Positions 20,686 through 27,489 of a stretch of DNA of 64,000 bases are shown piece after piece. The stretch is taken from the NCBI GenBank assembly GCA_030833925.1, contig JAURGE010000005.1, forward strand, positions 4,654-68,653, read 5' to 3'. Source of the stretch: Alphaproteobacteria bacterium (GTDB lineage Bacteria > Pseudomonadota > Alphaproteobacteria > Bin95). Under the pieces are notes generated by a model that saw nothing but the letters and a program-made list of their open reading frames with translations, made no database searches and was not told the DNA's origin. Position 1 is the stretch's first letter, and the number at the start of each line of letters is the position of its first letter. The translations under genes and the position numbers were made by a program.

Positions 20686-21954
20686 ATGACGCTCTCATCG
20701 GTCACCGAATTTGATGCTGACTCGCCAAAATTTTTGCGCGGCAAGTATGCGATATGTGGGATTGGCGAAACAACTTACCGCCGTGGTTCGGAGGAATCGA
20801 CCCGCAATCTAGCAACTTGGGCTATAAAGAATGCCATGGATGATGCTGGGATTGGTTCCTCCGACATTGACGGCATGCTCTCCTATTCTGGGAATGACTC
20901 TGTACATGCACCTTGGGTGGCTGGTGATCTTGGTATTCGATTAAACTTCTATATGGATGTTCATGGTGGTGGTTCATCTACTGAGGCACTGATTGGGATT
21001 GCCATCGGCGTTATTGAGGCCGGTATGTGTAAGACTGTTGCTATCTACAGGGCTATGAATGGCTACAGTCAAGTCCGTATTGGTGGAACCGGGGCGCGTT
21101 CTGCGGTTCCGATAGTTGGTGACCAAATTCATAACCGTGCTTATGGTTGGCAGTCAGCTGGGCAGATGTTTGCGCCTACATTCCTCCGCCATATGTACGA
21201 TTTTGGAACAACCCCTGAACAGGTTGCAGCGGTCAAGGTTGCACACTCGAAACATGCCTCCAACAACCCGAAAGCGTATTATAAAAATCGCGTAACGGTA
21301 GAGGACGTGGTCAACTCACGTATTATCTGTAAGCCGCTGCATTTACTTGACTGCTGCGTCGAAACCGATAACGCCACCTGTATAATTGTGACGAGGATTG
21401 ATCGGGCCAGAGATTGCAAGAATCCGCCTGCAGTCATTCAGTCAGTTGTGGGGCGGTGCTGTAAGCCTCGGATAGATATGCATTACCAGCATGGTCCTAT
21501 CTCAACTGTGGCAGGACATTACGCAAAGAATATTCTTTGGCCAAATGCAGGACTTGGCCCGGAGGATGTGGATGTGACGGGTTCTTATGATGCGTTCACA
21601 TTTACCACGATGCTGCAGCTTGAGGATTATGGGTTCTGTAAAAAAGGTGAAGGTGGCGACTATGTATCCTCAGGAGCCATTGAGCTGGGTGGAAAGCGTC
21701 CCAACAATACGTCTGGCGGACATCTCTGTGAGGGCTACACCCATGGGATGAACATGGTAATTGAGAATACTCGCCAACTTCGGGGTGAAGTCGACGACAG
21801 CTGTCCAATAGGACCAGACGGTAAGCGCCAGCACACACACGATTATAGTGAGGGCGGATGCCGTCAGGTCAAAAATGTAGAGGTCACTGCCAATCTTGGA
21901 TGGGCTATGCCAGGGACTGGATCTGCAATGGTCATGGCAAAAGACGTGCGCTGA
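20686..21954 (+). CDS. Thiolase-superfamily (SCP2/Ltp2-like) protein lacking the N-terminal catalytic Cys
   Basis: YAICGIGET, VHGGGSS at the usual Cys position, HASNNPKA, CCVETDNA, YDAFT, NTSGGHLCEGYTHG. Confidence 0.85.
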   Translation: MTLSSVTEFDADSPKFLRGKYAICGIGETTYRRGSEESTRNLATWAIKNAMDDAGIGSSDIDGMLSYSGNDSVHAPWVAGDLGIRLNFYMDVHGGGSSTEALIGIAIGVIEAGMCKTVAIYRAMNGYSQVRIGGTGARSAVPIVGDQIHNRAYGWQSAGQMFAPTFLRHMYDFGTTPEQVAAVKVAHSKHASNNPKAYYKNRVTVEDVVNSRIICKPLHLLDCCVETDNATCIIVTRIDRARDCKNPPAVIQSVVGRCCKPRIDMHYQHGPISTVAGHYAKNILWPNAGLGPEDVDVTGSYDAFTFTTMLQLEDYGFCKKGEGGDYVSSGAIELGGKRPNNTSGGHLCEGYTHGMNMVIENTRQLRGEVDDSCPIGPDGKRQHTHDYSEGGCRQVKNVEVTANLGWAMPGTGSAMVMAKDVR

Positions 21955-21969
21955 GCGGAGGATAAAGAT

Positions 21970-22491
21970 ATGGCAATCGTTGGCGAATATATGGGTATGG
22001 CCCTCACGATCGATGATCAAGACAAGGAGAACCGTGAATTCTTTAACTGGTGCGCCAAGGGAGAATTCAGGCTACAAAAAGGGAAGAAGTCAGGCCTGTT
22101 GCGGTATCCCCCAACTACTGCATGTCCTTGGACAACCGATCGAGATTACGATTGGGTTGAAGTTGAAGGAAAGGGGACGGTGCATTCCTACGTCGAAGTG
22201 CATCACCCCATCCAGCCGGCTTTTCGCGATAAAGTTCCATACATGATTTTATTGGTTGATTTGGATACCCAAAAAGGTGAGCCATCCGAACATGAAGCTA
22301 TTCGTGTTGCTGGAAACCTAGTGACACCGGATGGCGAATTTGCGGAGCCAGAAACAATCAAGTCTGTTGGAATAGGTACTCGGGTTCGAATGGTATTTAA
22401 ACAGGTAACTGAGGGCTTTTCTTTACCGCACTGGACAATAGATCAGGATGCGGAACAGCCCATCAGTCCCTGGCGCTATCCGCAGGAGTAG
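21970..22491 (+). CDS. DUF35/ChsH2-type OB-fold acyl-CoA-binding partner
   Basis: RYPP..ACP, WVEVEGKGTVHSY, PAFRDKVPYMILLVDLD, RVAGNLV; directly after the thiolase-like gene. Confidence 0.85.
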   Translation: MAIVGEYMGMALTIDDQDKENREFFNWCAKGEFRLQKGKKSGLLRYPPTTACPWTTDRDYDWVEVEGKGTVHSYVEVHHPIQPAFRDKVPYMILLVDLDTQKGEPSEHEAIRVAGNLVTPDGEFAEPETIKSVGIGTRVRMVFKQVTEGFSLPHWTIDQDAEQPISPWRYPQE

Positions 22492-22494
22492 GTT

Positions 22495-23130
22495 GTGGTA
22501 GGTGATTCCGTTTACGAACGCCAAAACTTCGGCAATTCAGTTGGCTTTGGATCCAGACCTGCGTTGCTAATAGTTGATTTCCAGGTTGGTTTTATCGACC
22601 CAGCTGTTTTTGGCGGCGGAAATATAAAAGAGGCAGTTTCTAACACTGCGTTTTTATTGGCGGGAATGAGGGAGATTGGCGCGCCTGTTGCATATACGCG
22701 GGCCGTTTTTGATGAGGAAGCAGTGGATGGAGGCACTTTTGCTTTAAAAGTACCGGGACTTTACCGATTAAAAGAAAGCGCCGCTATAAGCCAAATTACG
22801 CCAGATTTGGCACCTCGTTCCGGTGAATTAGTGCTTAATAAGATTGGTCCATCCGCTTTCTTTTCTACCCCGTTAATTAGTTGGCTTTCCAAGCAATCTG
22901 TAGATACCTTGATAATAACTGGCGCAACCACATCAGGCTGTGTCCGTGCCAGTGTTGTAGACAGCTGCTCGTATTCATTTCGAACCATAGTTGCCACAGA
23001 TTGCTGCGGCGACAGGGCAATTGAGCCACATGAAGCCAACTTGTTTGATATCGGCCAAAAATATGCTGATCTAATGACAGGCGAAGAGGCCCTTGCCAAA
23101 GCGCGGGCGGCAGTCGGTAGGAATGAATAA
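22495..23130 (+). CDS. Isochorismatase-family cysteine hydrolase (NicF maleamate amidohydrolase/N-carbamoylsarcosine amidase-like)
   Basis: Triad D (LIVDFQ), K (VLNKIGPSAF), C (TTSGCVRAS); HEANLFDI..KYAD tail. Confidence 0.88.
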   Translation: MVGDSVYERQNFGNSVGFGSRPALLIVDFQVGFIDPAVFGGGNIKEAVSNTAFLLAGMREIGAPVAYTRAVFDEEAVDGGTFALKVPGLYRLKESAAISQITPDLAPRSGELVLNKIGPSAFFSTPLISWLSKQSVDTLIITGATTSGCVRASVVDSCSYSFRTIVATDCCGDRAIEPHEANLFDIGQKYADLMTGEEALAKARAAVGRNE

Positions 23131-23132
23131 AA

Positions 23133-24206
23133 CTACTCTTCCTTATAGGCGTTCAGGCCGAGTTCTTCACGGAAATTGGAACTGATTTCTGCTTTAGGGT
23201 CTTCAAGTGGAATGCCAGTTGCATCTGCAATCTTTACGACAGCTTGAAAGATCCCTATTACGGCCGCCGCGTCTATCATGGCATTTTCACCTAATTCATT
23301 CATCACGGCTTGTCTTTGTTCAGCTAGGTCCGGTGCGTTAGCCACAGCTGCCTCTGCAAAAGCTAACAGTAGACCACCCCAAGGAACACCACTTTCTGCT
23401 CCTCGGTCAACTACTGCTGCATCTGAAAATGTTGCTCCAGCATGAAGTCCACTCCCACGGAGCAGCACGATATGGCTGGTTGTTCAATACAAACATCGAT
23501 TAAGTGCAGAAACGCGGGCAGCTAAAAGTTCGATCTGAGAATGAGAAATTGCTCTAGGTTCTATATCAAAGCGACGAAGCATTGCGTCAGGGAGATACAT
23601 AGCGTCGTCAAGGTCGAAGAAGCCAGAAACACATGCTGGAACCAGGCTAAGTGCTCTATGGATGTTGGCGCCGCCACGTCCTTCATACATTGCGTAAGCG
23701 GCAGCAGGGTCAGCGTCGCTGAGATCATCTGGGTTTACCATTGGAACCCACGCGCCAGCTTCCCTTGCGGATGCCACGGACTCTCGCGATGGCTCGCCAG
23801 GTTTTGGTATAGGCAAATTTCTTAGCGGCAGGCCTAATGCGACGTGAAAACGATCGACGGCTATGGTTTCCGCAATAATACCGATGGTTTCGACATATTT
23901 TTCGGTAGAAAGAACTTCTGGAACAACACGGTCAAACCATCTCTTGGTTAGACGATTAGCATCAGTAGTGATGCGATGAATAACATCGACCCAGTCCGGG
24001 TGAAGATCTGATGCTGAATTATGAACTCCAACGTTAGCTTCAGGCGTTAGGGCTTCCTTACGATTAGCGCAAGCAATGCAAGCAAGCGCCGACCGGGTTT
24101 CTTCTGCAATAGATACCTTCTCGGCAGAATTTAGCCATGTACCAGCGCGTCCCAGGCGATCCCAAGCGCGATCATGGGCCTCAGTTAAATCCTTCCGAAT
24201 AGCCAT
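23133..24206 (-). CDS. Probable AhpD/CMD-like selenoprotein (about 357 aa, Sec at TGA 23484-23486); split in the track into 23484..24230 and 23133..23468
   Basis: Both ORFs share one frame: TAT TGA ACA ACC AGC CAT ATC GTG. Read-through gives E-x11-C-x2-U-x3-H, the AhpD spacing. AGGAG RBS before ATG 24206; no RBS before the downstream GTG. Confidence 0.85.
23433..23479 (-). promoter_or_regulatory. Candidate bacterial SECIS hairpin
   Basis: After UGA: TGCTCC-GT-G-GGAG-[TGGA]-CTTC-AT-GCT-GGAGCA. The apical loop starts 33 nt after UGA and has G at its second position. An alternative lower stem CCAGC/GCTGG is also possible. Folded by eye. Confidence 0.55.
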
Positions 24207-24295
24207 TGCCACTCCTAGTCCCCTCCGCATAAACGGTAGATTAATAGATTAATGTTTCATTGTTCAATTGTACCTATAGGTGTGTCAGATTTTCT

Positions 24296-25216
24296 ATGAT
24301 TGAAAATTCTTCAACCAGGCGAATAGAGGGCAGAACAGTCGCTGGCATTAGTCTGATGCTATTAGCGATAGTTCTGTTTTCTTGTTTAAATGGTTCAGTT
24401 AAATGGCTGACCCAGGATTATGACCCGTTGATGGTTGTTTGGGCTCGGAATATGGGCGCTTTTGCATTCATGCTGGCTGCATTTCTGCCAAAATATGGGT
24501 TTGCTTTGTTTCGGACAGAGCGACCGCTCGGTCAGGTGGTTCGAGCCATATTCCTACTCGGTTCATCTATGCTCTACTTTTTTGGGCTCTCTTATATGGA
24601 CATGGCGACTGGCGCCGCAATTCAACTTACGGGACCTTTGATGGTGACTGCGTTGTCAGTGCCGTTGCTAAAAGAGCAAGTAGGGTGGCGGCGTTGGCTA
24701 GCAGTAATTGTAGGGTTCATAGGGGCATTAATCATAATTCGCCCTGGGTTTGATATGCGTTGGGCTGCTCTGCTTTTTCTAGCAAGCGCTTTTTGCTCCA
24801 CTTTTTATGCAATTTTTACGCGACATCTCTCCAACTACGATAATCCTGCCACGGCTGCGACAGTAGCCGCTGCCGTTGGCGTTATTGCCATAACCCCGGC
24901 GGTACCATTTTTCTGGGAAACACCGCAGGGCATACTCTCAATTTTTCTTTTCTTCTTAGTTGGGATTTTAGCTGGAGCAGGACATTTTCTGCTGACTAGC
25001 GCATATAGATACGCTGAAGCTTCTACATTAGCTCCTTTCAGCTATGTTCATCTTTTGGGTGCGGCTGTAATTGGTTTTTTTATTTTTGATCATTTTCCTG
25101 ATCTCTGGACGTGTGTAGGGGCATCCATAATTGTAACTGCGGGGCTATATGTGGCGCATAGAGAACGCCTAAAAATTCGTTCAGAAACCATTTCGCGTAA
25201 AAATAAATCTGATTAG
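24296..25216 (+). CDS. DMT (EamA-like) transporter
   Basis: VVWARNMG, LLKEQVGWRRW, ALIIIRPG, STLAPFSY; divergent from the selenoprotein gene. Confidence 0.92.
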   Translation: MIENSSTRRIEGRTVAGISLMLLAIVLFSCLNGSVKWLTQDYDPLMVVWARNMGAFAFMLAAFLPKYGFALFRTERPLGQVVRAIFLLGSSMLYFFGLSYMDMATGAAIQLTGPLMVTALSVPLLKEQVGWRRWLAVIVGFIGALIIIRPGFDMRWAALLFLASAFCSTFYAIFTRHLSNYDNPATAATVAAAVGVIAITPAVPFFWETPQGILSIFLFFLVGILAGAGHFLLTSAYRYAEASTLAPFSYVHLLGAAVIGFFIFDHFPDLWTCVGASIIVTAGLYVAHRERLKIRSETISRKNKSD

Positions 25217-26121
25217 TGTTTGGAATTATGAATTCTATCGCCCGCCAACACGAACGCTCTGACGCTACACGTGTATTTATTGATGTAGATCAGCCATTTT
25301 CCCTTACTGAACCGGTTGAGCAGACAGTGCCAATTGTTGTCGCGTCACCTCACTCTGGATCTCGTTATCCCTCCGATTTGCTTGCAGCAACCAAACTAGA
25401 CCCATTATCGCTTCGCCAATCGGAGGATGCGTATGTTGATGCTTTGTTTGGAGGCGCAACTAAGTTAGGAGCGCCGATGTTGGCGGCTGAGTTTCCACGA
25501 GCATACGTAGATGTTAACCGCGAGCCATATGAGCTAGATCCACTTATGTTCGATGCTCCGCTCCCCCCCTACGCAATCACACGCTCACCAAGGGTCGCAG
25601 CAGGACTTGGCTCAATTCCTAGAATCGTTGCTGCTGGAATTGAAATCTACGGTCGCCGATTAAGCTTTGCCGAAGCAGCAGCACGTCTCGATGCATGCTA
25701 TAAGCCTTATCATAGAGAGTTGCGCAGATTAGTTCGTACAACGCACGCTAAGTTTGATCGGTGTATTCTTATTGATGCACATTCAATGCCCTCAACGGGT
25801 CTCTCGCCAAAGAATGATCCTGGGGGGCCTATCGATATCGTTATTGGCGATAATCATGGCCGTGCCGCAGACCTGAAATACAGTGTCGCTGCTCAAGCAT
25901 ATTTTGGCGACCTTGGTTATGCAGTGACCGTTAATGATCCATACTCAGGGGGATTTGTTACCCGAGCCTATGGTGATCCCGCACAGGATATTCACGTGTT
26001 GCAAGTGGAGATTAACCGCGCACTTTATATGGACGAGCGGACGTATGAAATAAGTTCATATTTTCCAACTCTAACAAGGGATGTAACAGCGTTCATCGCT
26101 CACATCGGAACTGTTTTTTGA
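25216..26121 (+). CDS. N-formylglutamate amidohydrolase
   Basis: ASPHSG, RAYVDVNREP, YKPYH, LIDAHSMPS, NDPYSGG, QVEINRALYMDE. Confidence 0.93.
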   Translation: MFGIMNSIARQHERSDATRVFIDVDQPFSLTEPVEQTVPIVVASPHSGSRYPSDLLAATKLDPLSLRQSEDAYVDALFGGATKLGAPMLAAEFPRAYVDVNREPYELDPLMFDAPLPPYAITRSPRVAAGLGSIPRIVAAGIEIYGRRLSFAEAAARLDACYKPYHRELRRLVRTTHAKFDRCILIDAHSMPSTGLSPKNDPGGPIDIVIGDNHGRAADLKYSVAAQAYFGDLGYAVTVNDPYSGGFVTRAYGDPAQDIHVLQVEINRALYMDERTYEISSYFPTLTRDVTAFIAHIGTVF

Positions 26122-26152
26122 TTAATAACATTTTGAATCTTTGAGATTAAAT

Positions 26153-26182
26153 AAAGAAAAGGCCGCACCGAAGTGCGGCCTT
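26153..26182 (-). terminator. Intrinsic terminator of the sRNA
   Basis: Perfect 10-bp stem with TTCG loop followed by TTCTTT on the minus strand. Confidence 0.85.
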
Positions 26183-26239
26183 AAAGTATAGGGAGGAAAC
26201 GCCCAAGAAGGGCATTAGATCGCCGAAGCGATCTCATAC
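26153..26239 (-). ncRNA. mmgR: alpha-r8 / MmgR (Rfam suhB-like) small RNA
   Basis: Minus strand: hairpin AGATCGC-TTCG-GCGATCT, hairpin ATGCCC-TTCTT-GGGCGT, decamer TTTCCTCCCT (26199-26190), terminator AAGGCCGCAC-TTCG-GTGCGGCCTT plus a U-rich tail. Adjacent to the N-formylglutamate amidohydrolase gene. Confidence 0.8.
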
Positions 26240-26244
26240 TTTTT

Positions 26245-26286
26245 ATATAAAATGATGCGTCGCACAAAACAAGTGCTGCAGCGCAA
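26245..26286 (-). promoter_or_regulatory. Sigma70-type promoter of the sRNA with two TGCRNYGCA (PhaR-like) boxes
   Basis: CTTGTT-N17-TTATAT (26273-26245). TGCGACGCA lies in the spacer and TGCGCTGCAGCA immediately upstream of the -35. Confidence 0.6.
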
Positions 26287-26322
26287 TATTTTTAAAAATA
26301 ATGCTAAATTCGGGTTTCCGCA

Positions 26323-27489
26323 TTATTCCGCCGCAGTTGGGAGGTTAAGCTCCGCTAAAATACGGGCTCTATCTTGATCTACATCCGGAGCTGTGGGCCT
26401 CTCTATCGGGTCATCATACCCAGATAGTTTAACGGGATTTCCTGCAACCTTAAGCTTACCCACCTTGGGATCATTTACTTCAATAACCATTTTTCTGGGG
26501 CCAACTTGTGGGTGGGCCATGACGGCCTCTACATTATTGATGCCACTTGCTGGAATGCCCGCTGGGTCAAGTTCTGAAAGCCAATCTGCAGTGGCTCTAG
26601 TTGCAAGAATTCCCTCAACTTCCAACTCAAGCGCTGATTGATGTTCGGTTCTGGACCGATTGCTCTCGTAACGAGGATCGTCTTTTAAGTCTGGTCGTCC
26701 TACTATGTCACAAAAGCGATGAAACATGGCGTTATTGCCCGCTGCAATAATCATATGCCCATCCAATGTTTTGAATACCTGGAAGGGGGTGATGGAGGGA
26801 TGACGCCCTCCAAGCGGGCCTGGAATTTCTCCCGTGGCACCGTAGCGGGCGATCGCATTTTCACAAAATGCTATCTGGCAATCGAGCATTCCTATATCGA
26901 GCTTTCGTCCTTCACCGGTGCGCTCGCGATCGTACAATGCTGTGACCATTCCTATAGTTGTGTACAGCCCCGCACCAATGTCACCGATTGACATGCCCAC
27001 GCGTGTAGGTTCGCCTCCTGGTTGACCGGTTATAGACATTATCCCGCCCATCGCTTGAACGACCATGTCGTAGGCGGGGCGTTTAGAGTGCGGGCCAGTG
27101 TGACCAAAGCCCGAACAGGCGGCATAGATTAATCTTGGATATTTGACATGCAGATCTTCCCAGCCATAACCGAGCTTTTCCATTGTGCCTGGACGATAGT
27201 TCTCTACAATTATATCAGCGGTATCTAACAGTTTTTCAAAAATAGTTCGGTCGCTATCGTCTTTTAAATTTAGGGCGATAGATTCTTTCCCTCTATTAAC
27301 TGATACAAAATAGGCGGACTTACCGTTCACGAAAGGACCGTACTCTCGCGCATCGTCACCTGTTCCAGGCGTTTCTACTTTGATTACGCGGGCACCAAGA
27401 TCGGATAAAATCATGGTCGAGAATGGACCTGCAAGGACACGGGTAAGATCAATAACTGTTACGCCACTAAATGGGCCGGGGACAGGCAT
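26323..27489 (-). CDS. Class III (CaiB/BaiF) CoA-transferase
   Basis: VIDLTRVLAGP, LGARVIKVE, NRGKESI, ENYRPG, RPAYDMVVQAMGG (catalytic Asp). Confidence 0.95.
   Translation of the reverse strand: MPVPGPFSGVTVIDLTRVLAGPFSTMILSDLGARVIKVETPGTGDDAREYGPFVNGKSAYFVSVNRGKESIALNLKDDSDRTIFEKLLDTADIIVENYRPGTMEKLGYGWEDLHVKYPRLIYAACSGFGHTGPHSKRPAYDMVVQAMGGIMSITGQPGGEPTRVGMSIGDIGAGLYTTIGMVTALYDRERTGEGRKLDIGMLDCQIAFCENAIARYGATGEIPGPLGGRHPSITPFQVFKTLDGHMIIAAGNNAMFHRFCDIVGRPDLKDDPRYESNRSRTEHQSALELEVEGILATRATADWLSELDPAGIPASGINNVEAVMAHPQVGPRKMVIEVNDPKVGKLKVAGNPVKLSGYDDPIERPTAPDVDQDRARILAELNLPTAAE

Follow-up and report, generated by a model that had tools for sequence, protein, structure and literature searches.

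A Probable Bacterial SECIS with a Conserved GU-Loop Hairpin in an AhpD-Related Selenoprotein Gene of an Alphaproteobacterium

Introduction

The SelB-dependent mechanism of selenocysteine (Sec) insertion is established in E. coli and Moorella, and in E. coli fdhF the GU of the SECIS loop is G23/U24 (+23/+24). The bSECIS model of Zhang and Gladyshev, as quoted in the Fig. 2 legend of PMC13188914, describes a loop of 3–9 nt on an upper stem of 4–16 bp, a G as the first or second loop nucleotide (most often within N1-G-[G/U]-N-N2), a spacing of 16–37 nt, and an MFE no higher than −7.5 kcal/mol. AhpD-like selenoproteins with a CxxU motif and a predicted bacterial SECIS have been described from Sargasso Sea and GOS metagenomes (PMC1088965, PMC2398784), and NCBIfam holds a curated family, NF041238 (AhpD_rel_CFYUT), named "alkylhydroperoxidase-related (seleno)protein".

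The gene described here lies on the minus strand of the window, by which we mean the whole 64,000 nt stretch of DNA that was analyzed. It resembles the AhpD-like genes of PMC1088965 and PMC2398784 in having CxxU followed by xxxH with a predicted SECIS downstream, and its family occurs in marine and uncultured Alphaproteobacteria, though the "AhpD-like 1/2" groups of those papers may not be the same subfamily as NF041238. An initial annotation had proposed a SECIS-like stem-loop at 23433–23479, immediately 3′ of an in-frame UGA. Conservation among homologues supports a SECIS-type element within that interval, and the sequence comparisons reported below make it very likely that the stem-loop at 23437–23479 (−) is the bacterial SECIS of an AhpD-related CxxU selenoprotein mRNA.

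Results and Discussion

Selenoprotein Gene and Sec Codon

The gene and its recoded codon are located as follows:

23133–24230, minus strand: AhpD-related selenoprotein gene, 365 aa with TGA read as Sec (U249)
23484–23486, minus strand: predicted Sec codon UGA; TGA in 30 of 30 aligned homologues and in 6 of 6 close relatives

Standard ORF calling splits this gene into a 248-aa ORF (23484–24230) and a 111-aa ORF (23133–23468), and the reading frame past the TGA (23486–23484) is open for 116 more codons, as far as 23133. The 111-aa ORF, which would start with a GTG at 23468 (−), was considered as a separate gene and rejected as spurious; it is the C-terminal part of the selenoprotein. When the TGA is translated as Sec, residues 246–253 read C-L-Y-U-T-T-S-H, which places the UGA where a C-x-x-U...H motif has its second redox residue. 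The full translation scores 429.9 bits against NF041238 (cut-off 175), with residues 11–363 matching profile positions 1–356 of 357. It belongs to the family by a score above the curated cut-off and also carries the C-x-Y-U/C-T motif at the AhpD-type redox site, although its own motif is CLYUT rather than the CFYUT that gave the family its name. The Pfam CMD match to this AhpD-related protein is weak.

Scanning 401 genomes from this bacterial class for NF041238 gave 34 matches in 21 genomes. All 34 have exactly one in-frame TGA, in the same alignment column class-wide, and the 116 aa downstream are conserved in frame among homologues. The full-length Cys forms have TGC or TGT in this column. 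A phylum-wide scan of 400 genomes for NF041238 found none besides the window's own gene. The word-indexed protein search returned only short forms among the matches listed (120 listed of 198, all 231–264 aa, with 60–68% query coverage), a length consistent with truncation at the TGA, and the Cys control used below was taken from an exhaustive search of representatives. The UGA at 23486–23484 is predicted to code for selenocysteine.

Stem-Loop Fold Downstream of UGA

The stem-loop consists of two tiers, with positions counted from the U of UGA as +1:

23475–23479, minus strand: 5′ arm of the lower stem, CCAGC, at +8 to +12 (MFE fold)
23437–23441, minus strand: 3′ arm of the lower stem, GCUGG, pairing with CCAGC in the MFE fold and kept in close relatives
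23447–23468, minus strand: upper SECIS hairpin, GU(G)CUGCUCC-GUG-GGAGUGGAC (RNAalifold consensus and MFE fold)
23456–23458, minus strand: apical loop GUG, with GU at +29/+30, the presumed SelB contact

Folding of 23490–23420 (−) with RNAfold, a check that the initial annotation had suggested, did find a structure, with an MFE of −16.3 kcal/mol and CCAGC/GCUGG and CUGCUCC-GUG-GGAGUGG as its two tiers, but the fold originally drawn is suboptimal and the MFE of the 71 nt is no lower than that of dinucleotide shuffles (z = −0.02), so that the stability of the single sequence is no greater than chance. The lower stem starts 4 nt after UGA. The upper hairpin spans +19 to +40 and is made of 7 contiguous bp (23465–23449) plus 2 bp past a bulged G (23466); alone it folds at −8.9 kcal/mol, and the MFE helices have a mean pair probability of about 0.8. 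Its loop starts 26 nt past UGA; the spacing compared with the bSECIS model is 25 nt in the window, and 24 nt in homologues with a 5-nt loop.

Set against the four constraints quoted for the bSECIS model, the conserved hairpin agrees with all of them. The loop is 3 nt (GUG; 5 nt, CGUGN, in most homologues) on a stem of 7 contiguous bp plus 2; G comes first in the loop, within a C-G-U-G-G pattern whose outer C and G are paired; there is a 25-nt spacing; and the hairpin alone comes to −8.9 kcal/mol, the entire structure to −16.3 kcal/mol. It also follows directly on an in-frame UGA, a codon that lines up with Cys in homologues. Hairpins with 7 bp or more and GU within a 3–7 nt loop at +20 to +31 follow 1.2% of 785 true TGA stops in the same genome, and 1.25% of 4011 random coding positions. 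No Rfam SECIS family matched 23350–23550 at E ≤ 10, and the hits that Rfam gave at this permissive threshold were chance ones. The bacterial SECIS models in Rfam are lineage-specific, and this miss is therefore no argument against function. Judged on sequence, the above-chance signal of the stem-loop comes from the comparison of homologues and not from single-sequence folding.

Conservation of the Hairpin among Homologues

Thirty TGA-containing loci were aligned without gaps and six closer relatives were added, and every one of these 36 TGA homologues has the upper hairpin and its G-U loop. For the 30 loci, RNAalifold returns one helix, columns 28–33 with 39–44, around the loop CGUGN. The conserved hairpin can be written as (C)UGCUC-CGUGN-GAGCGG, of which CUGCUCC-GUG-GGAGUGG is the version in the window; most homologues have the CGUGN loop with the closing position unpaired. 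In the apical loop (columns 35–37), column 35 shows no variation, and G.T.G is conserved to 90% or more across the 30 homologues.

Across the same 30 homologues, 82.8% of cells in the upper hairpin are paired compared with 33–53% when the pairing is slid, and four pairs show compensatory changes on both sides. These changes are few and belong to outer pairs; the four pairs of the core are invariant, and covariation is thus uninformative for them. The lower stem is paired in 57% of cells class-wide (24–42% slid), with double changes at 7 of 7 pairs; the shuffle control for these pair counts ignores phylogeny. Among the 330 windows of 27 nt along the 30 genes, those over the hairpin rank first and second in stability, with a mean of −9.4 kcal/mol against −5.6 ± 1.4 kcal/mol gene-wide.

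The six closer relatives, which are Rhodospirillales and Alphaproteobacteria MAGs at 62–73% protein identity, have the same two-tier fold. All six keep the GUG triloop and the CCAGC/GCUGG stem, and C-to-U changes in its 5′ arm keep the pairing. At the other end of the range, two Sec forms with a protein identity of 29–31% (L027 and L028) retain CUC-CGUGA-GAG.

Synonymous Codon Constraint

To describe codon choice we used the fraction of sequence pairs with the same amino acid that also share the codon, calculated from the 30-gene codon alignment. This fraction is 0.445 overall and rises to 0.85–0.88 in the best 6-codon windows, which start at codons +5 to +8 after Sec. No other part of the gene is under as much synonymous constraint as codons +7 to +12, which bears out the expectation, raised from the sequence alone, that the element limits codon choice in the segment after Sec. 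At these codons, Leu is CTC in 29 of 29 sequences, Arg is CGT in 28 of 29, and Ala is GCG in 16 of 16; Ser is AGC or AGT in all 30, with TCN never used. Upstream of the UGA, these 30 genes are mixed in the codons they use for Arg, Ser, and Leu.

These counts bear on one rival reading, namely that the hairpin is a by-product of the conserved peptide L-L-R-x-S-G and has no function as RNA. The stem nucleotides do code for conserved residues, and the invariance of the four core pairs leaves covariation silent on the matter, yet a demand for the peptide would not account for six-fold Leu, Arg, and Ser being kept to single codons or codon families in 28–30 of the roughly 30 Sec forms, which span different genera, when other Arg, Ser, and Leu columns of these genes are mixed. 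Two further observations point the same way: the distant Sec forms L027 and L028 keep the core sequence despite their low identity, and where L-R is retained in Cys forms it is encoded by four other codon pairs, with no such hairpin. We therefore consider a by-product very improbable.

Full-length forms made up about 29 of the best 150 matches in the exhaustive representative search, and the DNA of six Cys forms and one Gly form (L057) was compared. Where Leu-Arg is kept in the Cys forms it is coded by TTG CGT, CTA AGG, CTG CGG, or CTG CGA. The GCUC-CGUGN-GAGC hairpin is absent from all six, whose 27-nt windows at +15 have energies of −0.9, −1.0, −10.7 (in a GC-rich genome), 0.0, −3.2, and −3.8 kcal/mol, although this control is confounded with divergence since the Cys forms are also more distant (31–41% identity). 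The comparison of Sec-type and Cys-type homologues, which had been proposed as a covariation check, shows the hairpin present in TGA forms and absent in Cys forms, with invariant core pairs and few compensatory changes. Taken together, the codon freeze, the stability rank, and the absence from Cys forms indicate at the sequence level that the hairpin is conserved beyond the demand of the protein sequence.

Two of the forms without Sec deserve separate mention. The Gly form (L057:301–1509, a GCA_044231025.1 contig) carries GGT, coding for Gly, where Sec would be, with Ser replacing the first Cys, and keeps CUGCUC-CGCGC-GAGCGG at the SECIS position with the loop GU gone; its 27-nt window at +15 folds at −11.6 kcal/mol, and the hairpin looks like a fossil SECIS minus the loop GU. 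L051, a Cys form (TGT) on a Logan SRR22387948 contig, has a weak 5-bp A/U-rich stem with a CGUG loop at the SECIS position and may be a recent Sec-to-Cys conversion.

Alternative Apical Fold

The initial annotation had drawn a different hairpin, GGAG-[UGGA]-CUUC on a UGCUCC/GGAGCA stem or on an alternative CCAGC/GCUGG stem, with the loop 33 nt after UGA. All of its strings are found on the minus strand where they had been placed: UGA at 23486–23484, CCAGC at 23479–23475, UGCUCC at 23464–23459, GGAG at 23455–23452, UGGA at 23451–23448, CUUC at 23447–23444, GCUGG at 23441–23437, and GGAGCA at 23438–23433. The UGGA loop does start 33 nt after UGA and does have G at position 2. The fold can form, at −11.5 kcal/mol on UGCUCC/GGAGCA or −6.9 kcal/mol on CCAGC/GCUGG, and with a 4-nt loop and a spacing of 32–33 nt it formally fits the loose bSECIS constraints. 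The agreement claimed with the model is therefore correct but is shared by the conserved hairpin, and the model alone cannot choose between the folds, whereas comparative data can.

The comparative data leave the functional SECIS very unlikely to be the fold first drawn. Its upper helix is paired in 19% of cells in the 30 TGA homologues, with slid controls no worse, and the fold as a whole in 41%, inside the slid range of 32–45%. In the window sequence its helices have a mean pair probability of 0.16–0.17, far below that of the MFE helices, and it competes with the conserved hairpin for the UGCUCC and GGAG nucleotides. CUUC (columns 46–49) is CUCC in one close relative (L044) and CCAA or CGAA in the other five, and is also replaced in other homologues. 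With regard to the two stems, CCAGC/GCUGG stands as the lower stem of the MFE fold and is kept in all six close relatives. The loop of the conserved hairpin starts at 26 nt rather than at 33. We conclude from the comparisons above that the element is very probably a true SECIS, of a kind already known, which had been placed correctly and given the wrong apical fold.

Sec Machinery and Other Selenoprotein Candidates

The genome has selA (515 bits) adjoining selB (434 bits; C117:19867–21750) on contig C117, and ARAGORN finds a tRNA-Sec(tca) on C156. No selD above the cut-off was found in the 91%-complete assembly. The one selD-like hit, a weak one on C96, falls short of the cut-off; it is an AIR-synthase-family protein and was rejected. 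Seven of seven relatives examined have selD, several as fusion ORFs of 700–1000 aa, and at C166:4320–5178 (+) an Ndh-like ORF that runs off the contig end shares 43% identity over 280 aa with the N-terminal half of the 718-aa Ndh-SelD fusion ORF present in a relative. This ORF is probably the 5′ half of an Ndh-SelD fusion, and selD is thus probably missing from the assembly owing to the contig break at the end of C166. In two relatives a CFYUT-family selenoprotein gene lies 0.2–1.4 kb from selD (G073:C1:389234–391363 and G303:C1:4446051–4449475), and the selD genes of G303 and G320 have an in-frame TGA inside.

The least credible reading, that the UGA is a real stop or a pseudogene lesion which leaves two ORFs or a dead gene and a hairpin irrelevant to recoding, can draw on the split ORF calls (248 aa and 111 aa, the latter from the GTG at 23468) and on selD not being seen, and has next to no chance against a single TGA whose column is shared by 34 of 34 matches across the class and by six close relatives, a conserved 116 aa downstream, a family HMM that covers both halves, the presence of selA, selB, and tRNA-Sec, and selD in 7 of 7 relatives together with what is probably the 5′ half of an Ndh-SelD gene, broken off where C166 ends.

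We also scanned the genome for in-frame TGA with coding-like flanks and redox motifs, together with NCBIfam. This gave five more candidates in selenoprotein families, most of which score below the curated family cut-offs, and each of which has an in-frame TGA and a GU-loop hairpin:

C92:30154–30765, plus strand: AhpD-like CFYU candidate
C118:18410–18904, minus strand: PrxQ TxxU candidate
C115:100366–102090, plus strand: UGSC-family candidate
C54:1362–1886, minus strand: UGSC-family candidate
C64:46493–47020, plus strand: UGSC-family candidate

Their hairpins have 6–9 bp, loops of GGUC, CGUGAUA, CGUGUU, GUU, and GUU, and the loop GU at +22 to +27; 1–3% of control sites have such hairpins. The window gene is like these candidates in its apical stem of 6–9 bp and in having GU in a 3–7 nt loop, with two of them also having CGUG, and differs in that its GU at +29/+30 is the furthest from UGA. 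Two other in-frame-TGA candidates were rejected, one on C96 that is ribBA followed by ribH in frame, and one on C86, an acyl-CoA dehydrogenase whose start is downstream.

Genomic Surroundings and Significance

The neighbours of the gene in 20686–27489 of the window are a thiolase-like gene, a ChsH2-type OB-fold gene, an isochorismatase-family gene (convergent with the selenoprotein gene), an EamA transporter, an N-formylglutamate amidohydrolase, and a family III CoA-transferase. No obvious redox partner lies beside the selenoprotein gene in this interval. A match to Rfam RF00519 (suhB/mmgR sRNA) at 26145–26220 (−), with 69.5 bits against a gathering score of 41, fits an alphaproteobacterial origin.

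The main value of these results is in annotation, as standard callers split the gene in two. The corrected fold with its CUC-CGUGN-GAG core gives a simple signature for the Sec forms of this family, and the six SECIS hairpins in one genome give a small picture of what its SelB must recognise.

Comparison with Known Systems

By analogy with the established systems, SelB loaded with GTP and Sec-tRNA(Sec) would bind the apical loop and upper stem through its C-terminal winged-helix domain. The approaching ribosome would melt the lower stem, 4 nt past UGA, and the upper hairpin (+19 to +40) would then remain at the mRNA entrance, where the tethered SelB would bring Sec-tRNA(Sec) to the UGA in the A site in competition with RF2. 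A more speculative proposal, which we consider unlikely, is that one alphaproteobacterial SelB serves loop GU from +22 to +30 within a single genome, that the window family has kept its SECIS far out (+29/+30) with a near-invariant CUC-CGUGN-GAG class-wide, and that the mutually exclusive UGCUCC/GGAGCA pairing in this lineage could modulate SECIS availability. If true, this would make for a family-specific SECIS subtype and a spacing tolerance of SelB wider than the E. coli paradigm.

The SECIS proposed here is like those of E. coli fdhF and fdnG in being a stem-loop that falls within coding sequence right after the Sec UGA, and it shares with them and with the bSECIS model a small loop with G then U, an upper stem of 7 bp, and a lower stem that can be melted. 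It differs from fdhF in its loop, which is GUG or CGUGN in the window family and GGUC in fdhF, and in its 5′-side bulge, which is G here and U in fdhF. Its loop GU at +29/+30 is six nt further from UGA than that of fdhF, yet still within the 16–37 nt of the model. Current understanding of bacterial Sec insertion is unchanged by these findings; the family is an already known AhpD-related selenoprotein, and the arrangement is ordinary among Sec-using bacteria.
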